This document shows, piece after piece, positions 4,035 to 56,184 of a stretch of DNA of 64,000 nucleotides. Each line of letters opens with the position of its first letter. Position 1 is the first letter of the stretch. The stretch covers positions 3,904,001 to 3,968,000 of the forward strand of contig OZ251459.1 in the NCBI GenBank assembly GCA_965242525.1, written 5' to 3'. A program made the position numbers and the translations under genes. A model generated the notes under the pieces. It searched no databases. It was not told the origin of the DNA and was given only the letters and a program-made list of their open reading frames with translations. This DNA is from an uncultured Candidatus Binatia bacterium. Its GTDB lineage: Bacteria; Desulfobacterota; Binatia; UBA9968; JAJDTQ01.

Positions 4035-4144
4035 GGAAACTCTGAACAATTGCCCCCGTTCGTCCTGAGCGTAGCGAAGCGAAGTCGAAGGACGCGCTTT
4101 CCCATAGGGAGAGGCGCCTCGAGCCGGAATTGATCAGTGGTTCC
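4035..4144. mobile_element. MITE-like element abutting the merR stop codon
   Basis: GGAAACTCTGAACAAT...ATTGATCAGTGGTTCC ends with the core repeat inside; flanks CCAG/CTAG. Confidence 0.75.
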
Positions 4145-38385: not shown

Positions 38386-39300
38386 TTGATCCATGCCGAC
38401 TGCTTCGACTGGCTGGAGGGCCAGGAACCGAACCGCTTCCATGCAGTGGTGACCGACCCGCCTTACGGCTTGCACGAATACACGCATGAACAGCAGGAGA
38501 AGCTGCGCAGCGGAAAAGGCGGCGTCTGGCGCATACCGCCTTCTTTCGACGGGAACAGACGCTCTCCGCTGCCCCGGTTTACCACGCTGACGCAGGAACA
38601 GTTGGAACGGTTGGGGTCGTTCTTCCTCGTATGGGGGAAGTCGTTGCTTCCGAGACTCGTTCCCGGAGCCCATGTGGTCGTCGCCTCCAATCCTCTCGTT
38701 TCCTACATCGTTTCCACCGCCCTGGCCGAAGCCGGCCTGGAGAGACGGGGAGAGATCGTGCGCCTGACCATGACCATGCGCGGCGGAGACCGGCCCAAGG
38801 CCGCCCAGGAAGAATTCCATCGGGTCAGCGTCATGCCGCGTTCCATGTGGGAGCCGTGGATCGTGTGCCGAAAACCCCTGGAAGGCCGCGTGCAGGACAA
38901 CCTGAGGAAATGGAAGACGGGCGGCTTTCGACGTCCGTCGCCGGACAAGCCCTTCGGCGACGTCCTGGCGTCACGGCCTACGAGGAAGACGGAAAGGGAT
39001 CTTGCTCCCCACCCCAGCCTGAAGCCTCAAGCCTTCCTGAGGCAAGTCGTCCACGCCGCGTTGCCTTTGGGAGAAGGCGTGATCCTCGATCCGTTTGCCG
39101 GATCCGGTTCCACGTTGGCCGCGGCAGAGGCGGTGGGTTACGAGAGCATCGGCGTCGAGAGGGATACCGAGTTCTTCTCGCTGGCGCGCGAAGCGATACC
39201 GAAGCTGGCCAAACTCAAGACCAACGGGAGCGCTACAGCCTGTATATCCAGCTATCCCGTGCAGTTCAGGGAGCGTTTCGACGTGGAGGGTGGAAGATGA
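38386..39300 (+). CDS. Orphan N4/N6 DNA methyltransferase (beta-class motif order)
   Basis: TDPPY precedes HPSLKP and LDPFAGSGST. The 5' end may be slightly truncated. Confidence 0.9.
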   Translation: MIHADCFDWLEGQEPNRFHAVVTDPPYGLHEYTHEQQEKLRSGKGGVWRIPPSFDGNRRSPLPRFTTLTQEQLERLGSFFLVWGKSLLPRLVPGAHVVVASNPLVSYIVSTALAEAGLERRGEIVRLTMTMRGGDRPKAAQEEFHRVSVMPRSMWEPWIVCRKPLEGRVQDNLRKWKTGGFRRPSPDKPFGDVLASRPTRKTERDLAPHPSLKPQAFLRQVVHAALPLGEGVILDPFAGSGSTLAAAEAVGYESIGVERDTEFFSLAREAIPKLAKLKTNGSATACISSYPVQFRERFDVEGGR

Positions 39301-39545
39301 CGGCACGGCGTGTCTCGGCGACAGAGTTCAAGGCCAAGTGCCTGCGCATCATCAAGGAGATGAATGGCGACGGGCAACCGGTGACCGTCACCAATCGCGG
39401 GCGGGCGGTGGCGGTCTTGTCGCCGATACCGGCGTCGGACGAGCAACCGTCGCCGTTCATCGGCATGATGCGGGGCACGGTGTTGCGGTACGAAGACCCC
39501 TTCGAGCCTGCGGCCTCGCCATCCGACTGGTCCGTCCTGCGGTGA
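39297..39545 (+). CDS. Phd/YefM-family antitoxin
   Basis: MTARRVSATEFKAKCLRII..PVTVTNRGRAVAVLSP; GGAGG RBS. Confidence 0.9.
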   Translation: MTARRVSATEFKAKCLRIIKEMNGDGQPVTVTNRGRAVAVLSPIPASDEQPSPFIGMMRGTVLRYEDPFEPAASPSDWSVLR

Positions 39546-39670
39546 TCCTGCTCGACACCCATGTGCTGGTATGGTCCGTGGAGGGCCACCCGCGGCTTGG
39601 CGTGGCCGCAGGCGCCCGCATCAAGGAAACGAGACGAACGGATCGGGTCGGGGTGTCGGCCATGACCCCG
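39542..39670 (+). pseudogene. Truncated PIN/VapC toxin
   Basis: GTG-ILLDTHVLVW..RLG..VGVSA, after which resemblance ends; no C-terminal PIN acidic motifs. Confidence 0.75.
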
Positions 39671-39795
39671 ACGACTTCGGGCCACATGAGCCTCTACCTA
39701 TGGAGCACTATCTGGGTTAGAATGGTTGCCTGGTCGCTCATGTACAGGGTCCATCAGGGGCACGACATGCGCGCGAGCCATCGAGCACATTGAAA

Positions 39796-42700
39796 ATGAC
39801 TCCCTTCATCGACCTCCAAAGACGATTTCGCCAACTGACGGAGAAGGAACTCGAAGACATCGAATCCTTTGCCTATTGGGACGAGTTCCGGATTCACTCG
39901 CGCATGGGCTGGCCGGAGCTGTTGAAGCACCACCGCGTCATCCTTCTGGCAGAAGCCGGGGCCGGAAAGACCGTGGAGATGCGCAAGCAGGCGGAACGCC
40001 TCGTCGAAGCAGGTAAGTTCGCCTTCTTCGTGGCGGTGGAATCCCTCGACCGCGAACCCATCGAAGACGTAATCTCCGCAGACGAGGAAAGGACGTTCAA
40101 GGCATGGAAGACAGACCACGAGGCGCCGGCTTGGTTCTTCCTTGACGCGGTAGATGAGCTGAAGCTCACTCAGGGCAAGCTCGACCGGGCGCTTCGCCGA
40201 CTGGCGAAGGAGATCGACGACCGCCTCCACCGTGCCCACATCATCATTTCATGCCGTCCCAGCGACTGGCGTCCGAACAGCGACTTGGACACGGTACAGG
40301 ACAAGCTGCCGGCGCAGGAGGCCGATCGTCAACCTCCATTCCTGTCATCTGATGAAGTCTTCAGGAGTGCGTTCAGGCATGGTCACGGCGAAGTCAGCAC
40401 CGCAATCCAGCGAAGGAATGTCCTTTTGAGTCGAGAAACCGTGCAAACGGTGGCCATGCTTCCGATGAGCGACGGGCAGATCAAGCTCTTCGCAGAGCAG
40501 TCCGGGGTAGAAGACGCAGCCGCGTTTCTTGCAGAGGTTACTCGGCAAGATGCTTGGACCTTCGCCCGTCGTCCTCTGGACCTGACCAATTTGATCGCCG
40601 CATGGACGAGTTCGGGAGGCTCTGGCTCTCGGCGCCTCGGCTCCCGTGCAGAACAGCACGAAGCGAATGTCACTGCCAAGTTGGAAGACGACCCGGATAG
40701 ACCCGATCGGGGTGCCCTCTCCGGCGCCAAAGCTCGCCTTGGGGCAGAGCACTTGGCACTTGCCCTGGCCCTTACTCGTACACGAACCCTTCGATCACCT
40801 GAACAGACGGTGGACTCTGATCGCTCGGATGGCGTCCTCAAACCCGCAGATCTTCTCCTCGACTGGACCGAGGCAGAACGGCAGGCATTGCTTCGACGCG
40901 CCCTTTTCGGCCCTGCTACCTACGGACGTGTACGCTTTCATCATCGGTCGGTTCAGGAATACCTCGCTGCCCGACACTTGCGGGCGCTACGCGATAGAGG
41001 AATGTCCACGAAGGCGCTGTTTCGCTTGTTGTTTGCGGATGCCTACGGCCTTGAAGTCATGCTTCCCTCCATGCGCGCCATCGCCGCATGGCTCGCGTCA
41101 TGGGATGACGATATCTGCAAGGAGATGGCCAGGCGTGAACCGGAGGCGCTTCTATCGCTAGGCGATCCCGCCACTCTCGACATCGCCGCACGAAAAGATG
41201 TCGTTCGACGGTTCGCGGCCATATACGGCAAGGGAGGTTGGCGCGGCTTGGACGTTCCGATCGCCGAAGTTCGCAGGCTTGCAGATCCGGCTCTTGCATC
41301 GGTGATACGGGAGTGTTGGGGTAGCGAATCGACTAGCTACGATGTCCGCAGGTTGCTGGTCGCGCTGATCTGGCTGGGGCCAGTCAAGGAATGTAGAGAT
41401 CTGGTCCATGACACCGCGCATGACGCCTCCTAGGGTTCCAATCTTCGCGCTATGGCAATCCGTGCCCTGCTTGCTTGCGGATGCAACGCCAGCGTCCGCC
41501 AAATTGCGACCAGCATGTTAGCTCAGCCGGACTCTTGGCCTGATAAAGTCGTGTATGGCGTAGCGGCAGATTTGTTTCCGGAGGTCATCACGGCAGACGA
41601 ACTGGTCACGCTGATGGAGCGAAGGATCGAACCAACCGGCAGTGTCCCCAGTGTCAAGTCCGTATCGCGAAAGATAGCGAGGACCATTGCCCCACGGTCG
41701 AAAGAAGCGGCCGTCCTGCGCAACCAGATGGCGGCTCTCATATGGCGAGGTCGAGAACCTATACAAGAATCCGGCAAGATTCGTAGCACGTTCAGTTATC
41801 TCGCGCCGGCGCTGGCAACGCTGTGCCATCGGCAATTATCCGAGGCTTCGGATGGTCCATATGACGACTTGATCTGGGCCAGTGTGACTGCTTCCCGATT
41901 CAGTGGCAACCATTTCCGTGCATATGAACTGGCGGGTAAGCTCCGGGAGCAGTTTCATGATAAGCCAGAGCTACGAAACTCTGTCTTTTGGGCTGAATTG
42001 GCGTTCATGGATGAGGTCGTTCCGACTGATGATGCCTGGGATCGATTCTACCAGACGCGAAGGAATAGCCTTATAGCCCATCTCGACGAAGCGGATCGAT
42101 CTTGGCTTCTGGCGGCGCTCGCAGACGAAAGCCGGCCAGAACGACGTGCGATTGCGCTTTATGCCTTGATGAGGAACAGAGGTCAGCAAGGGCGAGACGC
42201 TTTGGGGTTGGACGCCATCCGTGACGCCATGAAGGACGACACAGAGTTGAGTCGGATACTGGAAGATCGCACGGTGTCACCCAAGCGAAGCAAAGAAATC
42301 GAGAGGTTAGATCGCAAGCATAGAGATATAGGAATACGTGAGGCACAACGCCTGGAACGAAATATGGAACCTTGGCAGCAATGGCGCGCGGAGTTGCTCG
42401 CTGATCCCGACGATGCTTTCTCAGAGGAGAAGCAGGCAGCGACAGTAGATACACTGTTCTCATGGTTGGAACAGAAGCAGCAACATCGGAATTCCTTCAA
42501 CGCCTGGGACAAGAACCCACTGATACATGCCTTTCGTTTGGACATAGCCGACCGCACTGAACAGGTGATTCGGAAACTCTGGCGTACCAACCAACCGATC
42601 CTCTGGTCTGCACAGCCTGCTGACGAACGAAACAGCATTCCCCGTAAATGGATTCTTGGACTTTCAGGTGTCTCGGCCGAAGCCTCGACTCCGGGGTGGA

Positions 42701-44199
42701 CGGATTCACTTTCGCCCGCCGAAGCCAGGATAGCGGCGGCCTACGCCACCTTGGAGTTGCAAGGCTTTGCCCCGTTCCTCGCCGACCTCGTAGAGTCACA
42801 TCCCCAGGAAGTGGACAAGGTGATAGGTGGTGAAGTAAGCGCCGAACTGAGTGTCGGCGGCGATTCTGACGATCTACCAACCTTTCAACGCCTGACTACT
42901 GCGGAGGGGAAACTCAAGCAGCTTCTCACCCCTCGCCTGCTTGCCGAACTGAAGTCTTGGCCTGACACCTTCACGGACGAGACCGGGCCGCATTGGGCAC
43001 AGCATCTAGACCAGGTATTGCAGATCTTGGACGAGACGACCTGTGGGGCGGACCGGGAGGAAATCGCCCAGATCTGCTCCACTCGCTACGAAGCTGAGCC
43101 ACTCGGCGTGGTAGCGATTGCTTGGCTCAAGGGCTTGTTCCGGTTCGACGCGGTGCGCGGAACGCAGACGCTGGTTGGGAAGTTCATGGACAGCAACGAC
43201 CCGGACATGCGCGAACGGGCGACTCAGACCTTCGCCGCTCTCTTTGGCGACCGATTTGGGAACAGGAATCCTGTCATCTTGAAGATTGACGATCTGGATC
43301 ACCGTGCTCAACTTCTCGGACAACTCGTCCGGATCGCTTATACCTTCGTTCGGCCGAAGGAGGATCAGGTTCACGAAGGGGCTTATTCCCTGAACACACG
43401 CGACCATGCCGAACGCGCTCGTGGAAGTTTGGTTTCTATACTGCTTGACACCCCCGGACCGGAAGCCCACCGCGTGGTCATGGCCTTGGCAGAGGATGAC
43501 GACTTTGCGGACTTGGCCGACCGGATGCGGCTTCGCGCCCGGCAACGAGCGGCGGCCGACGCCGAGTTTGCCGCCCTTAACCCCACGCAGGTTTGCGACC
43601 TCGAAAACGGCTTGGAAGCGCCGCCCACTGACAGAGACAGCCTATTTGCGGTTATGGTGGACCGATTGGAGGATCTCGACCATGACCTGAGAGATTCCGA
43701 TTTCACGGACCAGCGGATACTTCGGAGCATTGCGGAAGAATCGGATATGCAGCGTACCCTTGCCAGGCGACTTAAAGAGGGAGCGAAAGGCGCCTACAGT
43801 GTGACACGCGAAGAAGAGGTCGCCGATGGCAAACATACAGACATCCGGCTTGCCGCTGTCGATGGCGATCAGAAGGCGGTCATAGAAGTGAAGATTGCGG
43901 ATCGTTGGACGTTGAAAAAGCTCCGGCAAGCGCTCCGCAACCAACTCTTGAGCCAGTACTTGCGTCACTCGGACTGCAAGGCCGGTTGTCTTCTGCTGAC
44001 CTACCATGGGAGAAAGCAGCATTGGGTTCACCAAGTTCATCCTGAAAACAAAGAGATACTGACGTTTTCGCAGGTGGTCGAATTGCTGAAGGACGAGGCA
44101 CGAAGTATCGAGAAGGAAGGAGCGTATGACGTTCGCCTTGCAGTAATCGGCTTCGACCTCACCGATTCCTCGCCCGCGCCGGTCCATGGGGGGAACTGA
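39796..44199 (+). pseudogene. NACHT/STAND NTPase with C-terminal PD-(D/E)xK-like domain, interrupted by one in-frame TAG (41431-41433)
   Basis: ORFs 39790-41433 and 41452-44199 are in the same frame. Motifs: AEAGAGKT, FFLDAVDE, ISCRP, RRPLDL, FHHRSVQEYLAA; C-terminal EEEVADGKHTDIRL..IEVK. Confidence 0.75.
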
Positions 44200-44301: not shown

Positions 44302-47007
44302 ATGCCAGCCAGGAAGAAGAAGACGAACCGGGCCGAACGTGGACGGAGCGCCGGCAGTTACGCGCACCCCGAGGCGGGCGCGCTGCTGCGGCCCGACATC
44401 GGCACGCAATCACAGTTTCGGAAGAAGAAGCCGCCGGTCACTTGGCGTTACGATCCTTCGCTCTCCCCGGCCCTCGACTGGGCCGGAAAGGCCGAACGCA
44501 TCTCCTTCGACGCGCCGACCCTGCCCCTGTTCGTGCACGAGCGGCTGTCCACGTCCGCCATCCTGGAAACCCTGAAGGGGCACACCCGCGACCGCCAGGT
44601 GGACATGTTCGACCTCTTCGGGGAGAGCGACCTCCCCATCCGTGACCGGCTGCTCAAGGCATACGAGCATCGCAACGGGTGGGTGAACCGGCTGGTCCTC
44701 GGCGATTCCCTGGTGGTGATGAACTCCCTCATCGGCTACGAGGGCCTCGGCGGCCAAGTGCGGACCATCTACATGGACCCGCCCTACGCGGTGAAGTTCG
44801 GCTCGAACTTCCAGCCCTTCGTGCGCAAGCGCGACGTGACCCACGGCGACGACGAACACATGGTGCGCGAACCGGAGATGGTGCAGGCGTACCGGGACAC
44901 CTGGGAGTTGGGGATCCATTCCTTCCTGACCTACTTGCGGGACCGGCTGCTGCTCGCGCGGGAGCTGCTCCACCCTTCGGGGAGCATCTTCGTGCAGATG
45001 TCCGACACCAATTTGCACCACGTGCGCGAGGTGATGGACGAGGTGTTCGGGCCGGAGTGCTTCGTCTCGCAGATCAGCTTCCAGACCACTTCGGGCTTCG
45101 AGACCAGGACACTCGCTACTTTAGGCGACTTCCTGCTGTGGTACGCACGCGACCCGGATCGGCTGAAGGTGAGGAAGCTGTTCGAGGAACAGCCCGCGGC
45201 GCCCGGCGAGGGCAACGCGAGATGGGTCCTGCTCCCGGACGGCAGCTACCGGGGGGTGAGCGCCGCGGAGAAACGCGGGGAAGCGCCGCTCCCCGAGGAC
45301 GCCCGGCTCTACAAGCCCGACAACTTGCAGGGCCAAGGCGCGTCCCGCGAGCCCCAGCCCTTCGAGTTCGAGGGCAAGGTTTACGAGCCGGGCGCGAATT
45401 CGCACTGGAAGGCCAACTACCCGGCGGGGCTCGAACGCCTCGCTGCCGCGGGCCGGATCCACGCCGCGGCCAACAGCATCCAGTACCGGCGTTTTGCCTC
45501 AGACTTCCCCTACAAGGAGCGGGGCAACCTCTGGACCGACACCCTGACCGGCAGCTTCACGGAAGAGAAGCTGTACGTTGTCCAGACCAACCCCAAGGTG
45601 GTCGAACGCTGCCTGCTGATGACATCCGACCCCGGGGACCTCGTGTTCGATCCCACCTGCGGCTCCGGGACCACGGCTTGGTGCGCGGAGAAATGGGGGC
45701 GGCGGTGGATCACCTGCGATACGTCCCGGGTGCCCATCGCGCTGGCGCGGCAGCGGCTGCTGACGAGCACCTTTCATTTCTACCGGCTCAAGGAACCGGA
45801 GCGCGGTCCGGCCGGCGGCTTCGAGTACCAGCGCCGGCAAAATCGAAGGGGCGAGGAGGTCGGCGGCATCGTGCCCCACGTCAAGCTGGAATACATCGCC
45901 AATGACGAACCGGCCAAGGAAGAGGTGCTGGTGGACCGGCCGGAGACGGACGGGAGCGTCACGCGGGTGAGCGGCCCCTTCTGCGTGGAGGCGACCATTC
46001 CGGCCCCGGTGGAGTGGGAGGGAGATGGTGGGGATGGTTCCGGTGATATTGCCAGCGTCATCACTGGTGACGCGGACGCTACCGGCGCCATCGGTGACGC
46101 CGGCGCCGTCGGCTACACGAGCGACGGCTCCACCGCGGTCGCCCACGCCCGCCACGTCGATCGCATGATCGAGTTGCTGCGGCGCTCGCCAGTGCTGCGT
46201 CTCGGCGGCGGCCGTTCGGTCAGCCTGGCCAAGGTGCGCCGTCCCGCCCGGACCCTGAGCCTGTCCGCGGAAGCGGTGGTCGAGGGCGAAGGAGGGCAGA
46301 GCGCCGGAGAGACGACCGGCCAAGCCGTCGGGCAGAGCGCCGCCATCGTCTTCGGCCCCGAGAACGGCGCGGTCTCGGAGGCCCTGGTGTTCGAGGCGGC
46401 GCGGGAGGCCTACGCCAAGGGTTACGGCCATCTCTACGTCGTGGGCTTCGCCATCCAGCCCAACGCCAGACGCCTGATCGAAGACTGCGAACAGGCGGTG
46501 GGGACGCCCGCGACCTACGTGCAGGCGAGCATGGACCTGGTGATGGGAGACCTGCTCAAGAACCTGCGGTCGAGCCAGATCTTCTCGGTGTGCGGGCTGC
46601 CTGACGTGCGCATCCGGCGGGCGGAGGCGGGGGATTCGGCGGCATCGTCGGCGCAGAGCTACCAAGTCGAGCTGCTCGGCCTCGACGTGTTCGACCCCGT
46701 GGCCATGGACTCCGACCACCGGGAGGGAAACGACGTCCCGGCCTGGTTCCTCGATACCGACTACAACGGGCTCTGCTTCCACGTCTGCCAAGCGTTCTTC
46801 CCGCGAACTTCGGCCTGGGAGGGCCTCAAGCGCTCCCTCCGGGGCGAGTTCGAGGACAGCGTGTGGGCGCACCTTTCGGGAACCCTCAGCGCGCCCTTCC
46901 AGGCGGGAGAGCGCGGGCAGGTCGCGGTGAAGGTCGTCGATGACCGGGGAAACGAGCTGCTGGTAGTCAAGCCCCTCTCGGAGGCGGAAGCAGGGACGGA
47001 GGAGTGA
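44302..47007 (+). CDS. mod: Type III-like restriction-modification Mod (adenine methyltransferase)
   Basis: NRLVLGDSL, YMDPPY, VFDPTCGSGTT; long C-terminal extension ending in VKVVDDRGNE. Confidence 0.9.
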   Translation: MPARKKKTNRAERGRSAGSYAHPEAGALLRPDIGTQSQFRKKKPPVTWRYDPSLSPALDWAGKAERISFDAPTLPLFVHERLSTSAILETLKGHTRDRQVDMFDLFGESDLPIRDRLLKAYEHRNGWVNRLVLGDSLVVMNSLIGYEGLGGQVRTIYMDPPYAVKFGSNFQPFVRKRDVTHGDDEHMVREPEMVQAYRDTWELGIHSFLTYLRDRLLLARELLHPSGSIFVQMSDTNLHHVREVMDEVFGPECFVSQISFQTTSGFETRTLATLGDFLLWYARDPDRLKVRKLFEEQPAAPGEGNARWVLLPDGSYRGVSAAEKRGEAPLPEDARLYKPDNLQGQGASREPQPFEFEGKVYEPGANSHWKANYPAGLERLAAAGRIHAAANSIQYRRFASDFPYKERGNLWTDTLTGSFTEEKLYVVQTNPKVVERCLLMTSDPGDLVFDPTCGSGTTAWCAEKWGRRWITCDTSRVPIALARQRLLTSTFHFYRLKEPERGPAGGFEYQRRQNRRGEEVGGIVPHVKLEYIANDEPAKEEVLVDRPETDGSVTRVSGPFCVEATIPAPVEWEGDGGDGSGDIASVITGDADATGAIGDAGAVGYTSDGSTAVAHARHVDRMIELLRRSPVLRLGGGRSVSLAKVRRPARTLSLSAEAVVEGEGGQSAGETTGQAVGQSAAIVFGPENGAVSEALVFEAAREAYAKGYGHLYVVGFAIQPNARRLIEDCEQAVGTPATYVQASMDLVMGDLLKNLRSSQIFSVCGLPDVRIRRAEAGDSAASSAQSYQVELLGLDVFDPVAMDSDHREGNDVPAWFLDTDYNGLCFHVCQAFFPRTSAWEGLKRSLRGEFEDSVWAHLSGTLSAPFQAGERGQVAVKVVDDRGNELLVVKPLSEAEAGTEE

Positions 47008-47114
47008 GTTTGGTCCGAACCTTGCCTGAATCGTAACAGGGCTGGTAGGTTCTACACGGGAACCGCCTGCATTTGGAATCGTGTGCACGTAATTGCGTTA
47101 TTGGAGGCCGGGCC

Positions 47115-47339
47115 ATGAAGAACATCACCCTGAGCGCGGACGAACACCTGATCGAAGCTGCCCGCCAACGAGCCTCGTCCGAACATACGACCCTGAACGC
47201 GCAGTTTCGGCTGTGGCTGGAAGACTATGTCGGCCGGCGAAGGCATGCGGATGCTGCAATGGCGACCATCGACTCGCTTCATGCAAGCCTGTCCACCAGG
47301 GGCCGCAGATTCACGCGAGATGAAATGAATGAGCGCTGA
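47115..47339 (+). CDS. Small RHH-like antitoxin
   Basis: GGAGG RBS; MKNITLSADEHLIEAARQRA..TTLN..RFTRDEMNER; overlaps the start of a PIN gene. Confidence 0.75.
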   Translation: MKNITLSADEHLIEAARQRASSEHTTLNAQFRLWLEDYVGRRRHADAAMATIDSLHASLSTRGRRFTRDEMNER

Positions 47340-47450
47340 CGCCTTTATCGACACCAAGGTTTTCGTTCCCTGTACAGCGAAGACCTGCAGCACGGTCAGC
47401 AGATTGCCGGACTGACCATCGTGAACCCCTTCAGGGTATCGGATTCGTGA
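47329..47450 (+). pseudogene. Internally deleted PIN toxin
   Basis: N-terminus MSADAFIDTKVFV is joined out of frame to the C-terminus LYSEDLQHGQQIAGLTIVNPF. Confidence 0.8.
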
Positions 47451-47487
47451 AGCAGTCCTACCGCTTGCCGGAAGCCGAAGGGAAATC

Positions 47488-49158
47488 ATGATCCGCACGG
47501 TCCGCATTCGCGGCTTCAAGCGCTTCGACGAGGTGGAGTTCCGCCTGCCGGGGCATGTGGTGTTGGCCGGCCCCAACAACACCGGCAAGACGACGATGCT
47601 CCAGGCCGTCGCTTCGTGGTCGCTGGCTCTACGGCGGTGGCGGGAGCTCAACGACTTCAATCCGCGCCAGGGATACACCCGGGCGCCCATCGCCCGGCAC
47701 GCGTTTTCCGCGGTCCCGCTACGGAGCTTCGACCTCCTTTGGACCGATCGAAAGTACTGGGGGCAGATCGAGATCGAGATCCGGCACGACGCGGGCTGGT
47801 CGGTGACGATGGAGTTCATCTCGGACAGCACCGAGCAGATCTACGTCCGGCCCAGGGCGGACGTACCGGCGGATACATTGCGGGAACTCGATCTTCAGGC
47901 GGTGTTCGTTCCTTCCATGACCGGCCTCGGGATCGACGAGCCCCTGTTTCAACCGCCGAAGGTCGAGCAGCTTCTCGGCTTCGGCCGACCAGGCGAGGTC
48001 ATACGCAACCTGCTTGCGGAGGCCAACCAGGACGAACGCGCGTGGGATGCCCTCACGACGTCCATCGACAAGCTGTTCGGCTACGATCTCCTGCATCCTG
48101 ACGCAAGCAGCGCCCATATCCTCGCAGACTACACCATGACCCCAGGCGGGCCGCGGCTGGACATAGCGAGTGCCGGCAGCGGATTCCAGCAGGTGCTGAT
48201 GCTGCTTACGTTCCTCCACACGCGGCAAGGCGCGGTGCTGCTCCTGGACGAGCCGGATGCGCATCTGCACGTCATCCTCCAGGACGCCATCTATCACGAG
48301 TTGCGGAGCGTAGCCGCCCGGCAGCGATCACAACTCATCGTCGCAACACACTCGGAGGTGGTCATCAACGCCGTCGAGCCCCGCGAGCTGTGCGTTACGC
48401 TCAACGAACCCCGGATGGTCGCCGACAACGAGGAGCGCAGCCGGCTCATTACCTCGTTGCGCGTATTGACCAACGCGGACGTCATGCAGGCGATGGAAGC
48501 GCGCGGCGTCCTCTACGTCGAGGACTACACGGACATCAACATCCTGCGCGCCTGGGCAACGACCCTCGGGCACCGGGCCGCGGGCCTGCTCAACACGGAA
48601 CTGATGTGGAAGCCGTTGGTCTTCCAGGCGCAGGAGGACCGTCGAGGGACCAAGGCGGGCGGGCGAGGGATCGTCGCACGCGATCACTTCGAGGCGTTGC
48701 AACTCGTGCGCGAGGGGCTTCCCGGCTTGGAGCTTCACGACGGGGACGCGCGGCCGCCCGTCCCGGACACGGAGATCACGGGCGCGGGGTTGCAGCGGCT
48801 GCGCTGGCGGCGCTACGAGATCGAAAGCTACCTCCTTCATCCGGATGCGCTCGCCCGTTTCGTCGAGGCGGTGGTGGGAGCCGATTCCGCCGAAGCGCAC
48901 GTCGAGGACATGCTTCGCTATTGGCGCGACGAGTTCCCTCCAGCGGTGGTGAGGGACCCGTTCGGCGAACACATCATCCTGAACAGAACCAAGGCGCGTC
49001 GGGAAATCCTCCCTCCGCTGCTGGACGCAGCCGGACTCTACGGCCTGCCTTACACCCGCTACCACGAGATCGCCGCGCTGATGCGCCCCGAGGAGATCCA
49101 CCCCGAGGTCGTGGAAAAACTCGACGCCATCTGCCGCGCCTTCGGAGTCGAGCCGTGA
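47488..49158 (+). CDS. ABC-type ATPase fused to a TOPRIM-like domain (OLD/PARIS-like)
   Basis: GPNNTGKT, AGSGFQQ signature, LLLDEPDAHLH, VATHS; then YVEDYTD, HDGD, RYEIESYL. Confidence 0.82.
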   Translation: MIRTVRIRGFKRFDEVEFRLPGHVVLAGPNNTGKTTMLQAVASWSLALRRWRELNDFNPRQGYTRAPIARHAFSAVPLRSFDLLWTDRKYWGQIEIEIRHDAGWSVTMEFISDSTEQIYVRPRADVPADTLRELDLQAVFVPSMTGLGIDEPLFQPPKVEQLLGFGRPGEVIRNLLAEANQDERAWDALTTSIDKLFGYDLLHPDASSAHILADYTMTPGGPRLDIASAGSGFQQVLMLLTFLHTRQGAVLLLDEPDAHLHVILQDAIYHELRSVAARQRSQLIVATHSEVVINAVEPRELCVTLNEPRMVADNEERSRLITSLRVLTNADVMQAMEARGVLYVEDYTDINILRAWATTLGHRAAGLLNTELMWKPLVFQAQEDRRGTKAGGRGIVARDHFEALQLVREGLPGLELHDGDARPPVPDTEITGAGLQRLRWRRYEIESYLLHPDALARFVEAVVGADSAEAHVEDMLRYWRDEFPPAVVRDPFGEHIILNRTKARREILPPLLDAAGLYGLPYTRYHEIAALMRPEEIHPEVVEKLDAICRAFGVEP

Positions 49159-52100
49159 ACGCGCACGAAGTTCCCGAACCCATCCTCAATTCGCCGTTCG
49201 AGGAGCCGAAGGAGCACTGGTGGATCACGGAGCACGATCCGCCGGAGCGGCGGGCGGGCCGGCGCCCGGCCATGTACTTCTATCGGCCCCCGGGACGCGA
49301 AGCTTCACGGGAAGGCCAGGACGCGGGGACGGCCATCGAGTTGAAGCTGGTCAACCGCATCCGCGCCAAGCTTGCCGAGTGGCGGCCCCTGGCCTTGCGC
49401 GGCGAGGGCGGGGTGACCCGCACCACCACGGATCTGCTGCGCTACTGGCGGCGGGAAGGGCGAAGGCATCCGCTGTTCTTCGCCCAGGTCGAGGCGGCCG
49501 AGACCGTCATCTTCCTCACCGAGGCCCGCGAGGACTTCCTGCAAGGCGTGGACGTCCCGCTGGACGAGCCGGGCGAGGAGGCCAGGGCTGACGGCGTCCG
49601 GGCGTTCCGACGCCACGCGTGCAAGATGGCCACGGGCACGGGGAAGACGACGGTGATGGGGATGCTTGCCGCCTGGAGCATCCTCAACAAGGTGGCGGCC
49701 CGGGGCGACGCGCGCTTCTCGGACGTGGTGCTGGTGGTCTGCCCCAACGTGACCATCCGCAGCCGGCTCGAAGAGCTCAAGCCGCAAGGAGGCGAGGCCA
49801 GCCTGTACCGCACCCGCGACCTCGTGCCGTCGCACCTGATGCCGCAGTTGGCGCGCGGCCACGTGCTGGTCACCAACTGGCACGTGTTCGAACCCAGGAC
49901 CGTGCAGGCCGCGGGCGAGACCGCCAGGGTCCTTCGCACCGGGCGCCAGGTCCGAACCCGGGAGACCATCCGCATCGGCGCCCGGACGACGACGGCGCGC
50001 GGGACCCGCTACCTGACCCTGAAGGACCTCGAACGGCAGGCGGCCACCGGCCTAGTTCGCGTCCTCGACGAACAGCGGGACGGCCAGGGGAACCTCAAGT
50101 CGGTCTCCGTGGAGTCCGTCCGTTACGTCGAGAGCGACAGCAAGCTCATCGAGCGCGTGCTCGGGCGCGAGGTGGGAGGCAAGCGTAACATCCTGGTGAT
50201 GAACGACGAGGCCCACCACGCCTATCGCATCCGGCGCGCGGAGCCGGACGAGGACGAGGCGGACCTGTTCGGCGAAACGGACGACGGCGAGGCGTTCTAC
50301 CGGGAGGCGACCGTGTGGGTGGACGGCCTCGACCGCATCCACAAGCATCGCGGCATCAACCTCTGCATCGACCTCTCCGCCACGCCCTACTACCTGGGGC
50401 GGGTCGGGCAGAACGCCAACCGGCCCTTTCCGTGGGTGGTGAGCGACTTCGGACTCATCGACGCCATCGAGTCCGGCCTGGTCAAGATCCCGCAGCTTGC
50501 GGTGCGGGACACGAGCGGCGCCCCCATCCCCGGCTACTTCAACATCTGGCGCTGGATCCTCCCGAAGCTGACCCCGGCGGAACGCGGCGGCCGGCGGGGA
50601 AGCGTGAAGCCGGAGGCGGTGCTCAAGTATGCGCACGTGCCCATGGCCATGCTCGGCGGGCTGTGGGAGGCCCTGCGCCAGGAGTGGAGCGAGGAAGGCC
50701 GTCCGCCGGTGTTCATCATCGTGTGCAAGGACACCGCCCTCGCCAGGGTCGTGTATCGGTGGCTCGCCGAAGACAAGGCGCCGGTGGGGATTCCGCCCGC
50801 GCGCCTCGACGGGTTGCGCAACGCGGATGGGGCCGTCCGCACCATCCGGGTGGACACCAAGGTCGTGCGCGAATCCGACAGCGGGGAGGCGAAGTTCGAC
50901 GAAGACAGGTGGATGCGCGTGACCCTGGATACGGTGGGCAAGACCGACTGGCCGCGGGACGGGCAGGGACGGTCCATCTACCCGGAAGGTTTCGAGGCGC
51001 TTGCCGGGAAGCTCCAACGGCCGCTGCATCCGCCGGGCCGGGACGTGCGGTGCATCGTCAGCGTGGGGATGCTGACCGAGGGCTGGGACTGCAACACCGT
51101 TACCCATATCGTGGGGCTTCGCCCGTTCATGTCGCAGTTGCTCTGCGAGCAGGTGGTCGGCCGCGGGCTGCGGCGGTCCAGCTACACGGTGGAGGAAGAC
51201 GGGAAGCTCGGCGAGGAGGTCGCGAAGATCTTCGGGGTTCCGTTCGAGATCGTCCCGCTGAAGGGGAACCCTTCCGGCAACGAGCCGAAGCCGCCTCCGA
51301 AGACCTGGCGGGTGCGGGCGGTCCCCGGGAAGGCCCGCCTGGAGATCCGGTTTCCCCGCGTCGAGGGTTACGCCCGGGAGATCCGCCACCGCGTGAAGGT
51401 CGATTGGGAGAGCATCGCTCCCCTCCGTCTCGACCCGATGCACATCCCGCCGGAAGTGGAGATGAAGGCAGGGCTTCCGGGCAATACCGGCCGCCCTTCG
51501 CTCGTGGGTCCGGGACGGCTGGAGCGCGTGGACCTGAACCCGTACCGCGAAGAACGGCGCTTCCAGCGGCTGGTGTTCGAGATGGCGCGGGACCTGACAC
51601 GGGACTACCGGCAGCAACCCGGCTGCGACGCCCCTGCCCACGTCCTGTTCGTCCAGCTTGCCGCCATCGTCCATCGGTACCTCAGGGAGAAGGTCCAACC
51701 CGTCGAGCCGGCGCAGAACGTCGATGCGTTCCTCTCTCCCTGGTACGGCTGGATGGTGGAACGGCTCATCGCCGCCGTCGAGCCGGACCACGAGACCGGC
51801 GAGGACGCCGAACTGCCGCGCTACGAGAGCGGCCGCGGCCCCGGCTCCACCGCAGAGGTCGATTTCGAGACCCGGCGGGAGCCCTACCCGGTGGTCAAGA
51901 GCCACGTCAACGCAGTCGTGCCCGACACCGCCAAGTGGGAACAGTCCGCGGCCTACCGGCTGGACACCCACGAGCGCGTGCATTCCTTCGTCAAGAACGC
52001 CTCCCTCGGTTTCGCCATCCCCTACCTGCACAACGGCCAGCACCACGAGTACCTGCCCGACTTCATCGTCCGCCTGACCGGGGACGCCGAACGCTACCTG

Positions 52101-52295
52101 ATCCTGGAAACCAAGGGCTACGACCCCCTCGAACAAGTGAAGTCACAGGCCGCCCAACGGTGGGTGCGGGCCGTGAACGCGGACCGCGGGTTCGGAACCT
52201 GGGACTATGCTATAGTCTCGGACATGGGCAAGGTCGGCGAGGCGGTCGAGCGGTTCGCGAACCAGCCGGATGGTTCAATCGAGGTTGAAGGCTGA
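49155..52295 (+). CDS. res: Type III-like restriction Res subunit (SF2 helicase + PD-(D/E)xK nuclease)
   Basis: GTG overlaps the upstream TGA. MATGTGKT, NDEAHH, SATP, MLTEGWD, QVVGRGLR, YLPDFIV..LETKG. Confidence 0.9.
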   Translation: MNAHEVPEPILNSPFEEPKEHWWITEHDPPERRAGRRPAMYFYRPPGREASREGQDAGTAIELKLVNRIRAKLAEWRPLALRGEGGVTRTTTDLLRYWRREGRRHPLFFAQVEAAETVIFLTEAREDFLQGVDVPLDEPGEEARADGVRAFRRHACKMATGTGKTTVMGMLAAWSILNKVAARGDARFSDVVLVVCPNVTIRSRLEELKPQGGEASLYRTRDLVPSHLMPQLARGHVLVTNWHVFEPRTVQAAGETARVLRTGRQVRTRETIRIGARTTTARGTRYLTLKDLERQAATGLVRVLDEQRDGQGNLKSVSVESVRYVESDSKLIERVLGREVGGKRNILVMNDEAHHAYRIRRAEPDEDEADLFGETDDGEAFYREATVWVDGLDRIHKHRGINLCIDLSATPYYLGRVGQNANRPFPWVVSDFGLIDAIESGLVKIPQLAVRDTSGAPIPGYFNIWRWILPKLTPAERGGRRGSVKPEAVLKYAHVPMAMLGGLWEALRQEWSEEGRPPVFIIVCKDTALARVVYRWLAEDKAPVGIPPARLDGLRNADGAVRTIRVDTKVVRESDSGEAKFDEDRWMRVTLDTVGKTDWPRDGQGRSIYPEGFEALAGKLQRPLHPPGRDVRCIVSVGMLTEGWDCNTVTHIVGLRPFMSQLLCEQVVGRGLRRSSYTVEEDGKLGEEVAKIFGVPFEIVPLKGNPSGNEPKPPPKTWRVRAVPGKARLEIRFPRVEGYAREIRHRVKVDWESIAPLRLDPMHIPPEVEMKAGLPGNTGRPSLVGPGRLERVDLNPYREERRFQRLVFEMARDLTRDYRQQPGCDAPAHVLFVQLAAIVHRYLREKVQPVEPAQNVDAFLSPWYGWMVERLIAAVEPDHETGEDAELPRYESGRGPGSTAEVDFETRREPYPVVKSHVNAVVPDTAKWEQSAAYRLDTHERVHSFVKNASLGFAIPYLHNGQHHEYLPDFIVRLTGDAERYLILETKGYDPLEQVKSQAAQRWVRAVNADRGFGTWDYAIVSDMGKVGEAVERFANQPDGSIEVEG

Positions 52296-52318
52296 ACCAG
52301 GAAGACGGAGATCAATCC

Positions 52319-54181
52319 ATGGAATACAAGAGCTTTCATATTAAGAACTTCAAGGGTATTTCCGATCAGACGATCAATCTCGGCAAGCGACCGACTGGTA
52401 GGGTATTTACCCTCGTGGGTCTCAACGAATCCGGGAAAACCACGGTTCTGGAGGCAATCAGTTCATTGGAAAGTAGAGAAACGCATCTGGAAGCCCTATA
52501 TCAGGAAGATTTTCCACATGGCGATGCCCATGATTTGATTCCCATGAAGAAAAAAGCCAATTTCAATGAATTGGTAGAAGTCTCTGCTGAAATCTCCCTG
52601 TCCGATCCGGAAGTTGACAAATTGATAAGTTATGCAAAGAGATCTCTCGCCTTCACAGTTGATCGTAAAGAATTCCCAACCGTGATCGGAATGAAAAAAG
52701 AGATGAAGTTCGAGAACTCGAGATACACAGGGACGACCTTTTGGTGGAATATAGATCCGATGGGAATACCGAGTAGAGGAAGAAAGAAGAGAAGACTTTC
52801 TATTCATAGCAAAGAGAAGTGGCAGCAGTTTGTACGTGAGATTAGCAATAACTTGCCCTCCATTCTATATTTTCCGACATTTCTGTTTGATTTCCCAAAG
52901 CGCATCTACGTGAGCTCAGATGCTAAGGAATCCGAAAAGAATACATTTTATTATGACGTAATCAAGGATATACTTGATTCGCTCGACGCTGACCTTGATA
53001 TAGAACAGCATATTGTCGATCGCGCCAGAAATGGTGACTCGCCGTCGCAAAGATCTCTGGAAGCAGTCTTGGCAAAGATGAGCTCGTCGGTGAGCAAGAC
53101 AGTGTTCAAGATGTGGAATAGTATATTTGGAAACAAAAAGAATATCCCCAGAAAGGATATCGTTATCCGTTGCGATACGGAGCCTGCCGGCAATGAGGGA
53201 GCATCGAAGGTTTACCTTGAATTCTTCGTTAAGGATGGGGATGAAATATACCTCATCACGGAACGGTCCCTTGGCTTCCGTTGGTTTTTCTGTTTTATGC
53301 TGTTTACCCAATTTCGCCAATACCGAAAAGAGACAGAAAACACGTTGTTTTTGTTCGATGAACCGGCATCCAACTTGCATTCTCACGCGCAAGCTCAGTT
53401 GCTGAAAAGTTTTATGACGATTATTGGTAGAGGACAAGGCAGGATTCTATACTCCACACATAGTCATTATATGATCAATCCTAGATGGTTGGAGAATACT
53501 TATATCGTCTCTAATGGTAGCCTATACGACAATGACAAGTCCATGTACGAGTATTCTTCGCGTGATGCAGACATACAGATAACGCCATATAGGGAGTTTG
53601 TCAGCCATCATCCCACGAAGACGAACTATTTCCAACCAATACTGGACACTCTTGAACATGCTCCCAGTAGTTTGGAGAGAATCTCTGACGCGGTATTTGT
53701 TGAGGGGAAGAATGATTTCTACATGCTCAAGTACTTCAATGAAGTCATTTTGCGGAATCACGAAACGTTCTCGATCATTCCGGGGACAGGTGCTGGTGGT
53801 TTCGATGCTTTGATTGGTTTGTATCTCGGTTGGGGGAAGAAGTTTATCTTACTACTTGACGATGATAACGCGGGTAGGATGAGTAAGGCAGGGTACATCC
53901 GAGAATGGCAGCCGCAAGAGTTTCTCGTTCTTACATTGAGAGACATCTCACAAGACTGGGCAGGCTTGGAAATGGATAGACTTCTGTCGGAACCAGATGT
54001 TGAGAACATCCGAGCAGATTTTTATCCAGACAAGAAGGGCAGGCCATCGAAGAAGGAAATCTGCCGTGCATTGCAAGAGAAGCTCAGCCGTGAAGATGCA
54101 AGCAATATCTCTGAGGAAACCATTGCTTCGTTTCGAAGGTTGCTGGACACATTGAAAGATAGATTGAATGGTCAGCGGTAG
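52319..54181 (+). CDS. OLD-like ABC ATPase-TOPRIM protein, visibly AT-richer than the host
   Basis: GLNESGKT, RSLGFRWF, LFDEPASNLH, YSTHS, FVEGKND, LLDDD. Confidence 0.85.
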   Translation: MEYKSFHIKNFKGISDQTINLGKRPTGRVFTLVGLNESGKTTVLEAISSLESRETHLEALYQEDFPHGDAHDLIPMKKKANFNELVEVSAEISLSDPEVDKLISYAKRSLAFTVDRKEFPTVIGMKKEMKFENSRYTGTTFWWNIDPMGIPSRGRKKRRLSIHSKEKWQQFVREISNNLPSILYFPTFLFDFPKRIYVSSDAKESEKNTFYYDVIKDILDSLDADLDIEQHIVDRARNGDSPSQRSLEAVLAKMSSSVSKTVFKMWNSIFGNKKNIPRKDIVIRCDTEPAGNEGASKVYLEFFVKDGDEIYLITERSLGFRWFFCFMLFTQFRQYRKETENTLFLFDEPASNLHSHAQAQLLKSFMTIIGRGQGRILYSTHSHYMINPRWLENTYIVSNGSLYDNDKSMYEYSSRDADIQITPYREFVSHHPTKTNYFQPILDTLEHAPSSLERISDAVFVEGKNDFYMLKYFNEVILRNHETFSIIPGTGAGGFDALIGLYLGWGKKFILLLDDDNAGRMSKAGYIREWQPQEFLVLTLRDISQDWAGLEMDRLLSEPDVENIRADFYPDKKGRPSKKEICRALQEKLSREDASNISEETIASFRRLLDTLKDRLNGQR

Positions 54182-54239
54182 TACCGGATGGCAATCGGGC
54201 AGATCCGTTGCCGGATTTCCGTGCAGGGCTACCGGCGCC

Positions 54240-54704
54240 TCACAGCAACGGCAATATCGCGCCGAACAGTACGCCCTCGAACAGGGACCGCTTCAGCAGC
54301 AGGTCGAGGCTGACGAAGACCAGGGCCCAGACCGCGGCCGCGGCCAGGAGGCAGCGGGGCCAGGAGGCGCCGCCGTAGCGGCGCAGGAACAGGACCATGT
54401 AGAGGGGGATGGCGAGATGGAAGCCGATGAGGAGCACCAGCACGCAGAAGGCCCCCAGCCAGGCGATGACCGGGGCGGCCTTGGACCACGGCGCCACGTC
54501 CGGGGCGGCTTCGTCCGCGGCCGCGCTCGGGTAGAGCAGTTCCCGGCCCAGACTGAACAGGATCAGCGCCAGCGTGGGCGCGCCCAGCACCACCGGCACG
54601 AGCCCTCCCTGTCCTTCGAACCCGAGGGACAGGGAGACCACCAGCGCCACCACCGCCAAGTAGAGCAGGTTGACGATCACGCCGGTGTAGTCCATGCGCT
54701 TCAT
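54240..54704 (-). CDS. tctB: Tripartite tricarboxylate transporter small subunit TctB
   Basis: About 5 TM segments; lies downstream of tctA. Confidence 0.75.
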   Translation of the reverse strand: MKRMDYTGVIVNLLYLAVVALVVSLSLGFEGQGGLVPVVLGAPTLALILFSLGRELLYPSAAADEAAPDVAPWSKAAPVIAWLGAFCVLVLLIGFHLAIPLYMVLFLRRYGGASWPRCLLAAAAVWALVFVSLDLLLKRSLFEGVLFGAILPLL

Positions 54705-54714
54705 GGCGGTCTCG

Positions 54715-56184
54715 TCAGCGGGTCCGCAGCCGCTTGGCCACCGGCGCCGCGGCCATCGTGAGGATGAGGATCCAGGAGATGGCGCTGTCGAAGAATCCCG
54801 TATAGCTGCCGTCGTGGATGCGCAGGGTCAGCAGGAAGGACTTCTCCGCCAGGTCGCCGAGCACGAAGCCGATGACCAGGGGCAGCACCGGCACTCCCGC
54901 CCGCCGCATGGCGAAGCCGAGCACGCCCAGCAGCACCACCAGCACCACGTCCCAGACGTTCTCCCGCAGGATGTAGGTTCCGGCCAGGGAGACCACCGCG
55001 ATGACGGCCGAGAGGTAGTGGACCGGGACCCGGGTGATGACGGCCAGGTAGCGGGCGGCGAACAGGCCGAATATGCTGGCGAAGGCGTTGGACACCACGT
55101 AGCCGTTGAGCAGGGTCCAGACGAATATGGGCTGCTCCACGATCAACTGGGGTCCCGGCGAGATCCCGTGCATGATGAATATGCTCAGGAGCAGGGCCAT
55201 GGCGAGGCTCCCGGGGATGCCGAAGCTGAGGGTGGTCAGCAACGCCCCGCCATCCTTGGAGTCGTTGGCCGCCTCGCTGGCGATGACGCCCTCGGGATGG
55301 CCCTTGCCGAAGGAGCCCGGGTCCCTGGAGGCCTGCACCGCCACCGTATAGGCGATGAGGTTGGCGGTCTCGCCCCCCACTCCCGGTATGATCCCCACCA
55401 GCGTGCCGATGGAGGAGCTCCGCAGCAGGCACACCGCGTAGCGGAAGTTCTCCAGCACCCCCTGCCAGGCGCCCCGTATGCTGGCCTCGACGTTGTCCCG
55501 GGCGATGGTGCCCCCCTGGGCCGAGTAGTTGATGAGCTCCCCGATGGCGAACAGCCCCACGAAGAACGGTATCAGGGGGATGCCGTCCCACAGGTACTCG
55601 CTGCCCAGCGTATAGCGGATGAGCCCGGTGGGCTCGTTGAGCCCCACCAAGGACAGCAGGATGCCGACGCCGCCGGCCACGAGGCCCTTCAGCAGCGACC
55701 CCTGGCTCACGGTGGCGGTGGTGACGAGGCCGAACACCACCAGCCAGAAGATCTCCGGGTGGCCGAAGGCCAGCACCAGCGGGCGCATGACCTGGATCAG
55801 CAGGGCGAGGATCACGAGTCCGAAGAGCGCCCCCAGGAGGCAGGCCCCGGCCGACAGGCCCAGGGCCCGGGCCGCCTCCCCTCGCTTGGCCATGGGGTAG
55901 CCGTCGAAGCAGGTGGCGGCGTTCACCGGCGTGCCCGGGGTGTTGAGCAGGATGGCGCTGATGGAGCCGCCGAAAGAGCTCGCTCCCATGATGCCGGAGA
56001 ACAGATAGACCGCGGTGATGGCGTCCCAGGTGAACGTGAACGGGAGCAGCATGGACATGGCGAGGATGCCGCCCAGGCCCGGCACCGCGCCGAAGACCAG
56101 GCCGATGATGCTGCCCGCGCACAGCGTCAGTATGACGTGCGGCTCGGCAATGGTGGCCAGGGCGCCGCCGAATCCCTCGAACAT
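54715..56184 (-). CDS. tctA: Tripartite tricarboxylate transporter TctA
   Basis: GAVPGLG, ILLNTPGTP..TCFDGYPMAK, SEAANDSKDGG..GIPGS. Confidence 0.93.
   Translation of the reverse strand: MFEGFGGALATIAEPHVILTLCAGSIIGLVFGAVPGLGGILAMSMLLPFTFTWDAITAVYLFSGIMGASSFGGSISAILLNTPGTPVNAATCFDGYPMAKRGEAARALGLSAGACLLGALFGLVILALLIQVMRPLVLAFGHPEIFWLVVFGLVTTATVSQGSLLKGLVAGGVGILLSLVGLNEPTGLIRYTLGSEYLWDGIPLIPFFVGLFAIGELINYSAQGGTIARDNVEASIRGAWQGVLENFRYAVCLLRSSSIGTLVGIIPGVGGETANLIAYTVAVQASRDPGSFGKGHPEGVIASEAANDSKDGGALLTTLSFGIPGSLAMALLLSIFIMHGISPGPQLIVEQPIFVWTLLNGYVVSNAFASIFGLFAARYLAVITRVPVHYLSAVIAVVSLAGTYILRENVWDVVLVVLLGVLGFAMRRAGVPVLPLVIGFVLGDLAEKSFLLTLRIHDGSYTGFFDSAISWILILTMAAAPVAKRLRTR

Follow-up and report, generated by a model that had tools for sequence, protein, structure and literature searches.

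Nested defence genes occur frequently, and as a rule one cannot tell if such a gene is a partner of the system that contains it or a passenger. This question is raised by a type III-like restriction-modification (R-M) locus of an uncultured Candidatus Binatia bacterium (assembly GCA_965242525.1, contig OZ251459.1, positions 3,904,001 to 3,968,000; these 64,000 nucleotides are referred to as the window), which carries two genes coding for proteins that combine an ATP-binding cassette (ABC) ATPase with a TOPRIM-type domain. One of them (ATPase 1) lies between mod and res and the other (ATPase 2) follows res. We found both cases side by side: ATPase 1 is an old and optional third gene of this mod/res clade, its presence being tracked by a short patch of Res, whereas ATPase 2 is probably an unrelated and transient passenger. 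The features of the locus, in window coordinates, are the following.

44302..47007, + strand: Mod, type III-like N6-adenine methyltransferase, 901 aa (PADLOC MTase_III, E 1.5e-139; PF01555); DPPY at residue 159 and DPTCGSGTT at 450.
47115..47339, + strand: antitoxin-like open reading frame (ORF), 74 aa, of an inserted toxin-antitoxin (TA) pair, outside the system; 85% identity to a gene of locus L013.
47329..47450, + strand: remnant of a PIN toxin gene, shortened by a large deletion inside it (122 nt versus 459 nt in L013).
47488..49158, + strand: ATPase 1, 556 aa, with a predicted ABC/SMC-type ATPase head (about residues 1-330) and a TOPRIM-type domain (AlphaFold2, neighbourhoods, trees).
49155..52295, + strand: Res, BPTD_3080-family superfamily 2 (SF2) helicase and PD-(D/E)xK nuclease, 1046 aa (NCBIfam NF046055); motif residues K164, DEAH 351-354, D969, E985 and K987.
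49266..49349, + strand: Res residues 38-65 (M40; T59-A60-I61-E-L-K64), the patch co-varying with ATPase 1; candidate docking surface.
52319..54181, + strand: ATPase 2, 620 aa, low-G+C OLD-like probable passenger in the variable position after res (G+C, AlphaFold2, Foldseek, neighbourhoods).

The gene order and ORF coordinates proposed in an earlier, sequence-only reading of the locus hold. The GTGA overlap between the end of ATPase 1 and the start of res is present, and ATPase 2, described there as starting 24 nt after res, begins at the 24th base past the res stop codon, leaving a gap of 23 nt.

The Res profile, the SF2 and PD-(D/E)xK motifs and the linked Mod place the host system, as far as sequence can tell, among the BPTD_3080 type III-like R-M systems. 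Res passes the family profile NF046055 with 1020 bits (cut-off 800), and its residues K164, D351, E352, H354, D969, E985 and K987 are unchanged across 68 of 68 loci, both where ATPase 1 is present and where it is not. The linked N6-adenine Mod matches PF01555, has an S-adenosylmethionine (SAM)-binding motif and shows DPPY in 57 of 57 cases. The locus thus shares with BPTD_3080-family and EcoP15I-like type III systems the Res family, a MTase_III-type Mod and intact helicase and nuclease motifs, but differs from them in that roughly four in ten loci of the subclade have a conserved third gene placed between mod and res, accompanied by the matching Res patch. A literature search on the name BPTD_3080 found no paper. 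The idea that Res has lost its nuclease and that ATPase 1 substitutes for it was rejected, the Res nuclease residues being intact whether ATPase 1 is there or not. In another locus (L231, 11327-15397), Mod is 1356 aa long and has an insertion that ends, beside the SAM-binding motif, in what we take to be an intein-like HN-C junction.

We surveyed the neighbourhoods of Res in a metagenome set of 80 loci (Res 54-72% identical, some near copies), 74 of them informative and 6 undetermined. The content of the mod-res slot was labelled by hand, and in four of the loci labelled as other (L080, L113, L131 and L149) a different gene precedes res and mod is not visible. ATPase 1 lay directly before res in 32 of the 74 informative loci and other cargo was present in 18, so that mod and res, presumed in the sequence-only reading to be normally adjacent, are adjacent in this clade in only 24. 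The association of ATPase 1 itself with mod/res was confirmed for its close homologues. Among GTDB loci with ATPase 1 at 65-85% identity, 8 of 13 had the order mod-ATPase 1-res, and these were found in Binatia, Gammaproteobacteria, Alphaproteobacteria and Thermodesulfobacteriota; of the 12 other matches with at least 60% identity obtained in 301 genomes of the class, 11 were located between mod and res (two genomes shared with the earlier set). The GTDB and class sets overlap, some genomes being in both. A 4-nt overlap joined ATPase 1 to res in 36 of 42 loci and to mod in 20 of 30. A metagenome scan with ATPase 1 as the sole query found nothing, no ATPase 1 match was obtained on plasmids (two matches to ATPase 2, at 26%, were), and the 31 distant relatives (22-34%) on viral contigs included none in the order mod-ATPase 1-res.

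Phylogenies support a long association. The embedded copies of ATPase 1 formed one branch (32 rows, support of 99 in the Shimodaira-Hasegawa-like approximate likelihood ratio test, SH-aLRT) comprising 29 embedded copies, with 3 solo copies nested inside. When the ATPase 1 and Res trees of 29 loci were compared, 8 of the 11 strongly supported ATPase 1 splits corresponded to strong Res splits, with one conflict. The distances among loci measured on the two proteins were correlated (Spearman 0.63; 0 of 2000 permutations as high), and so was the G+C content at third codon positions (GC3) of the two genes across loci (r 0.96). The presence of ATPase 1 was scattered over the Res tree, requiring 8 to 12 changes on the trees of different row sets; a first tree, of 74 rows, left out loci with Res running off the contig and 4 identical copies. 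Since the trees agree, presence is scattered and the Res residues are kept either way, ATPase 1 is old in this clade and optional.

The presence of ATPase 1 is also reflected in Res. In a comparison of 92 rows (47 with and 45 without ATPase 1), only 5 of 1045 Res positions differed by more than 0.6 in frequency, namely 40, 59, 60, 61 and 64. I61 was present in 98% of the rows with ATPase 1 and 9% of those without, K64 in 91% and 4%, and A60, T59 and M40 followed the same trend. After thinning of near copies, I61 together with K/R64 occurred in 36 of 40 rows with ATPase 1 and in 1 of 31 without. Independent contrasts were counted on trees of 88, then 71 rows; on a tree built from Res residue 101 onward, 7 such contrasts lay on supported branches, 6.1 of them in the same direction and none in the opposite one (median p 0.03), and the five patch positions took the top ranks among 31 candidates. 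Nearest-neighbour agreement reached 0.96 for residues 38-65, as compared to 0.77 for residues 5-37, which lie closer to the ATPase 1 gene, and 0.61-0.75 elsewhere. The codons of the patch vary at silent sites, indicating conservation at the protein level and not at the codon level. Such a local signal combined with silent codon variation speaks against a DNA element as well as a simple shared recombination block, and, given the variable synonymous codons, the idea that the patch is a DNA or RNA element was rejected. Thirteen loci fetched later all fitted the patch rule, one with and twelve without ATPase 1 (of the twelve, nine belong to a distant subclade and one is a near copy). In locus L113, nested among carriers of ATPase 1, res is preceded by another gene and the patch is altered. 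The co-variation points to a protein-level coupling of ATPase 1 to Res, and a contact at Res residues 38-65 can be predicted. Two other types of this segment (G40 with W60, and a longer form with YP-SGYEL) were seen in loci without ATPase 1, with no visible link to cargo. As for Mod, positions 575-579 and 635-637 were first thought to track ATPase 1 and were dropped when more loci showed their residues in 33-42% of loci without it; the best frequency difference in Mod was 0.70, at a poorly aligned N-terminal position.

The Walker A and B motifs, H-loop and TOPRIM-type acidic residues already noticed in both ATPases are kept and are conserved among their homologues. Of 39 close homologues of ATPase 1, all keep residues K34, D254, H288, E345, D349, D418, D420, E444, E446 and K502, and 38 keep E255; for ATPase 2, residues K40, D347, E348, H381, E462, D466, D514, D516 and K578 were kept in 111 of 111 homologues. 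The two proteins, 21% identical to each other over 96 residues, both match AAA_15/AAA_21 in Pfam. Full-length AlphaFold2 models were confident (predicted local distance difference test of 93.7 for ATPase 1 and 88.1 for ATPase 2) and contained an ABC head of the SMC/Rad50/PtuA type, with best Z scores of about 20-21. Because these match lists were obtained with full-length chains and are dominated by the ATPase head, the fact that AriB and isolated OLD TOPRIM chains are unlisted excludes nothing. The model of ATPase 1 could be aligned over residues 1-554 with the Thermus scotoductus class 1 OLD nuclease (PDB 6p74; Z 16.4, root mean square deviation (rmsd) 8.9, 362 residues), and over its full length with GajA (Z 14.9, rmsd 9.2, 368 residues) and the retron Eco8 nuclease (Z 14.0, rmsd 8.7, 401 residues). 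The 6p74 structure was the top Foldseek match of ATPase 1 and the best profile match of both proteins; with ATPase 2, Foldseek aligned 6p74 (E 1.1e-12) and GajA over 600-700 columns.

For the C-terminal parts, neither ATPase 1 nor 26 of its relatives had a Pfam match to PF20469 or DUF4435. In Atlas, the C-terminus of ATPase 1 fell mostly into unnamed clusters, followed by DUF4435 clusters at 0.93 and one cluster at 0.90 with PF20469 in 20% of its members. The ATPase 2 of the window is itself without a PF20469 match; 5 of 11 relatives match this family at E 0.02 or better, one of them above the cut-off, and its C-terminus was assigned in Atlas at 0.95 to a cluster with 99% PF20469. PADLOC returned no family match at E 0.1 for the C-terminal parts of the two proteins or for the insert regions. 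ATPase 1 fits the class 1 OLD plan as a single-chain ABC ATPase with C-terminal TOPRIM acidic residues and no UvrD or reverse transcriptase partner. ATPase 2 fits it as a stand-alone ABC ATPase with a PF20469-type TOPRIM, judged from relatives, Atlas and Foldseek. Motifs and models thus suggest that both are OLD/PARIS-type ATPase-nucleases in their working mode, ATPase 2 being the more ordinary OLD of the two, and neither fits the Pfam definition of a fused PARIS.

The reading that we prefer on these data is that of a three-gene cassette: ATPase 1 has moved together with the Mod/Res clade and likely serves as a back-up (guard) nuclease docked on the patch near the N-terminus of Res, ATPase 2 being likely a stand-alone passenger; we would put the probability of this reading at about 0.45. 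Of the layered guarded module first proposed, the part linking ATPase 1 to mod/res stands, with the co-varying Res patch in addition, and the part that made ATPase 2 a second sensor fails. More tentatively still, one may picture a type III-like enzyme with a dedicated OLD-like third subunit, docked on Res through M40, T59-A60-I61 and K64 and firing when Mod-Res is attacked, as a type III counterpart of PrrC-EcoprrI. In the preferred reading, Mod2-Res would restrict DNA as type III enzymes do, and ATPase 1 would dimerise via its ABC heads, its binding to Res residues 38-65 keeping it inactive. When Mod-Res is disturbed, by a phage anti-restriction protein or otherwise, this contact would be altered; ATP turnover would then activate the TOPRIM site, which is expected to be metal-dependent, and the infected cell would be halted by nicking of its DNA (or by cleavage of tRNA, as in PARIS). 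A guard role is plausible and is preferred to the alternatives discussed below because ATPase 1 is dispensable for mod/res, because ABC-ATPase defence proteins are frequently triggered by anti-defence proteins (10.1101/2024.01.29.577857), because PrrC offers a precedent and because Ocr blocks type III R-M (10.1101/2023.04.06.535777). If ATPase 1 is indeed docked on Res, guarded restriction would extend from type I systems (PrrC) to a type III-like family present in several phyla, with a TOPRIM effector, and the patch would permit prediction of the guard from Res alone; if it is not, ATPase 1 is one more embedded OLD-like gene. The sharply localised patch provides a direct handle on this question.

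Several observations weigh against this interpretation. The supported independent contrasts are few, 5 on an earlier tree (p 0.06) or 7 on the present one (p 0.03), and the patch was chosen after inspection of all Res positions. A similar patch occurs in L085 and L116, which lack ATPase 1. Locus L004 carries an intact-looking ATPase 1 with no mod/res within 10 kb, in a genome where no Res of the clade was found (best match 37%), which fits poorly with a toxin that is lethal unless caged. The other five of the six close copies located away from mod/res speak for the interpretation, being truncated (L011, L210), frameshifted (L013) or altered in Walker B (E to Q, L005) or Walker A (P to R, L009). 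At the same chromosomal site in L230 (genome G757), mod and res are full length, ATPase 1 is reduced to an in-frame C-terminal remnant of 156 aa and ATPase 2 is missing. The mod-res slot, with other cargo in 18 and none in 24 of the 74 loci, resembles a hot spot. Relatives of ATPase 1 at 27-45% are mostly not beside mod/res, indicating that the family can stand alone. Finally, the trigger of PARIS is bound by the ATPase itself and not via a R-M enzyme (PMC11464382).

Alternatively, ATPase 1 would be a long-lived hitchhiker: a HEC-04/class 1 OLD-like defence nuclease sufficient in itself, which came into the mod-res slot a single time and has since been passed on with the cassette without any contact to Res, the patch following it through short recombination tracts or some other shared pressure. 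Single embedded defence genes are common (10.1101/2024.01.29.577857), and co-location by itself yields congruent trees. The slot also accepts HepT-like, NYN, STAND, ATPase plus DUF4276 and unknown genes, at least 8-12 gains or losses occurred on the Res tree, and distant relatives are found alone or beside type I hsdS, other BPTD_3080 pairs or E1/E2-like genes. However, the signal is limited to Res 38-65 and weak in Res 5-37, the segment between the patch and the ATPase 1 gene, and the patch is conserved as protein, not as codons. Moreover, no other cargo recurs beyond a few related loci. We consider this explanation somewhat unlikely, although it comes closest to the preferred one.

The association and the patch would be equally expected if ATPase 1 were an accessory restriction subunit resembling a fused MAD3-MAD4, docked on Res and nicking or resecting DNA cut or engaged by Res so as to block phage repair, with neither trigger nor cell death. 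MAD3 is the best NCBIfam match of ATPase 1 (47.6 bits for a cut-off of 420, too low for ATPase 1 to be taken as MAD3 itself), and MAD3-MAD4 is an ATPase-TOPRIM DNase that is needed for efficient defence in a methylation-based operon (PMC13662399; 10.1101/2023.03.30.534895). The acidic set is similar, with ExE and a lysine (PMC13662399); MAD3 and MAD4 are two genes of an eight-gene operon, whereas ATPase 1 is a single chain and the mad1-8 gene content is absent here. Yet none of the 68 loci examined, carriers of ATPase 1 or not, has lost the Res nuclease residues, and 42 of 74 loci manage without ATPase 1. In type III R-M, modification is by hemimethylation and cleavage requires inverted site pairs; an additional single-site nickase would endanger newly replicated host DNA. 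This explanation appears less probable than the hitchhiker.

Other known systems were compared with the cassette. Class 1 OLD (6p74) has in common with ATPase 1 the single chain that joins an ABC ATPase to a TOPRIM with E...D and DxD acidic residues, but identity is only 13-17% and PF20469 is missing from ATPase 1 and its relatives. HEC-04 is, like ATPase 1, an embedded fused ATPase-TOPRIM and requires its Walker A and TOPRIM residues (10.1101/2024.01.29.577857). The hosts surveyed for embedded genes in the available text of that source are Hma, BREX, DISARM and type I R-M, type III not being named there. The PADLOC model of HEC-04 was not among the best 25 of 127 families for ATPase 1, nor among the best 25 of 76 for ATPase 2. 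PARIS (AriA with AriB/DUF4435, or fused AriAB) resembles ATPase 1 by its ABC ATPase and TOPRIM, by the Atlas clusters mentioned above and by the logic of anti-anti-restriction, but DUF4435 is lacking from ATPase 1 and its relatives, and the PADLOC AriAB match to ATPase 1 covers only ATPase residues 244-316. A fused PARIS is defined by AAA_15/21 and DUF4435, which is PF14491, in one chain (PMC9122126); with PF14491 absent from ATPase 1, ATPase 2 and 37 relatives, this assignment was rejected for both. PARIS binds Ocr directly through AriA, and the available parts of PMC9122126 and PMC11464382 describe no docking to R-M. Because AriA itself senses Ocr, the comparison with PARIS concerns architecture more than wiring.

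PrrC carries a HEPN tRNase. In PrrC-EcoprrI, Ronin and EcoR22I the effector is embedded in, and controlled by, the R-M enzyme. PrrC differs from ATPase 1 by its type I R-M host, in which it is almost always embedded (10.1101/2024.01.29.577857), and Ronin by its effector, which is a small membrane protein. Killing in response to Ocr is also a property of the type III system EcoR22I, for which mod and res are sufficient (10.1101/2023.04.06.535777). Gabija was rejected: there is no GajB UvrD-type helicase partner, the genes nearby being mod, res and one for a transporter, and matches to GajA involve mainly the ATPase motifs. MANTIS (10.64898/2026.09.23.753747) and Menshen (PMC12065111), from what is available of these sources, are different systems. 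Neither embedded defence genes nor effectors of the ATPase-TOPRIM type are new; a literature search, outside which most subscription papers fell, found no paper on a mod-ATPase/TOPRIM-res cassette or on Res co-variation.

The neighbourhoods of ATPase 2 gave a different picture. It was absent from the 80 metagenome Res loci and from 300 other genomes of the class, and none of its nine homologue loci (2 genomic, 7 on viral contigs) lay beside mod/res; the homologue was a lone gene, mostly of lower G+C than its neighbours. In the window, the G+C content of ATPase 2 is 44% (GC3 0.50), as opposed to 66-69% (GC3 0.84-0.90) for mod, ATPase 1 and res. At the same chromosomal site, ATPase 2 is an 84-residue stub in L001, and the position after res is occupied elsewhere by Abi_alpha (L002), TIR, FRG, AAA_5 or nothing, and by another gene in L227. 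The association with mod/res proposed for both ATPases is thus not found for ATPase 2, which is probably an unrelated, transient passenger and would work like other abortive nucleases of the class 1 OLD-like kind, in response to a trigger of its own. A module with two dedicated sensors of Mod/Res inhibition is therefore largely refuted by the neighbourhoods and most improbable, even though ATPase 2 is on the same strand directly behind res, with no terminator-like site found between them, and its 5' end coincides with that of the L001 stub.

The junction between res and ATPase 2 is not an assembly artefact, since one contig of run X3 covers 51557-55500 without any difference. Runs X5 and X7 had little or no cover over ATPase 2, which is no proof of its absence. 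Promoter and terminator scans of the locus gave no more matches than shuffled sequences. The closest named relatives of this DNA were the Candidatus Binatia genomes of L001 and L002, at 84-92% nucleotide identity. The TA relic described between mod and ATPase 1 is real: in L013, the antitoxin-like gene is followed by an intact PIN gene (152 aa, PF01850), and the pair is missing in L001 and skipped by an X5 contig that joins 46990 to 47487.

Several relatives of ATPase 1 were encountered in other settings. In L237, L238 and L239, relatives at 28-32% from two other branches lie in other BPTD_3080 loci (res-ATPase-mod or res-mod-ATPase), which suggests that recruitment of the family to such loci has been repeated. 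Relatives at 40% follow type I hsdM/hsdS (specificity-like) genes in L235 and L236. A sister branch of the embedded clade (L240, L226) is located after E1/E2-like genes, which, judging by motifs, we take to code for ThiF/E1 and E2-like enzymes. In L096 (4414-7974), the mod-res slot contains an ATPase plus DUF4276 pair and ATPase 1 in tandem. The genome of the window (G000, C1) has three paralogues of ATPase 1 (33-45%) outside mod/res, at 110, 180 and 2073 kb, and four further mod/res-like loci at 770-777, 3494-3500, 4128-4136 and 1939-1944 kb, some with other cargo between the genes.

Upstream of mod, 38386-39700 holds an orphan type II-like methyltransferase (PADLOC E 1e-109) followed by what the ORF translations suggest is a Phd/PIN toxin-antitoxin relic. 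A HyoA-like NACHT anti-phage gene (NF058534; halves of 613 and 671 bits) occupies 39790-44199. A TAG at 41431-41433 breaks it, the corresponding codon of L001 being TGG within a single ORF of 1425 aa; the interruption is either real or an assembly error. Together with the R-M locus, the orphan methyltransferase and the HyoA-like gene form a defence island from 38.4 to 54.2 kb.

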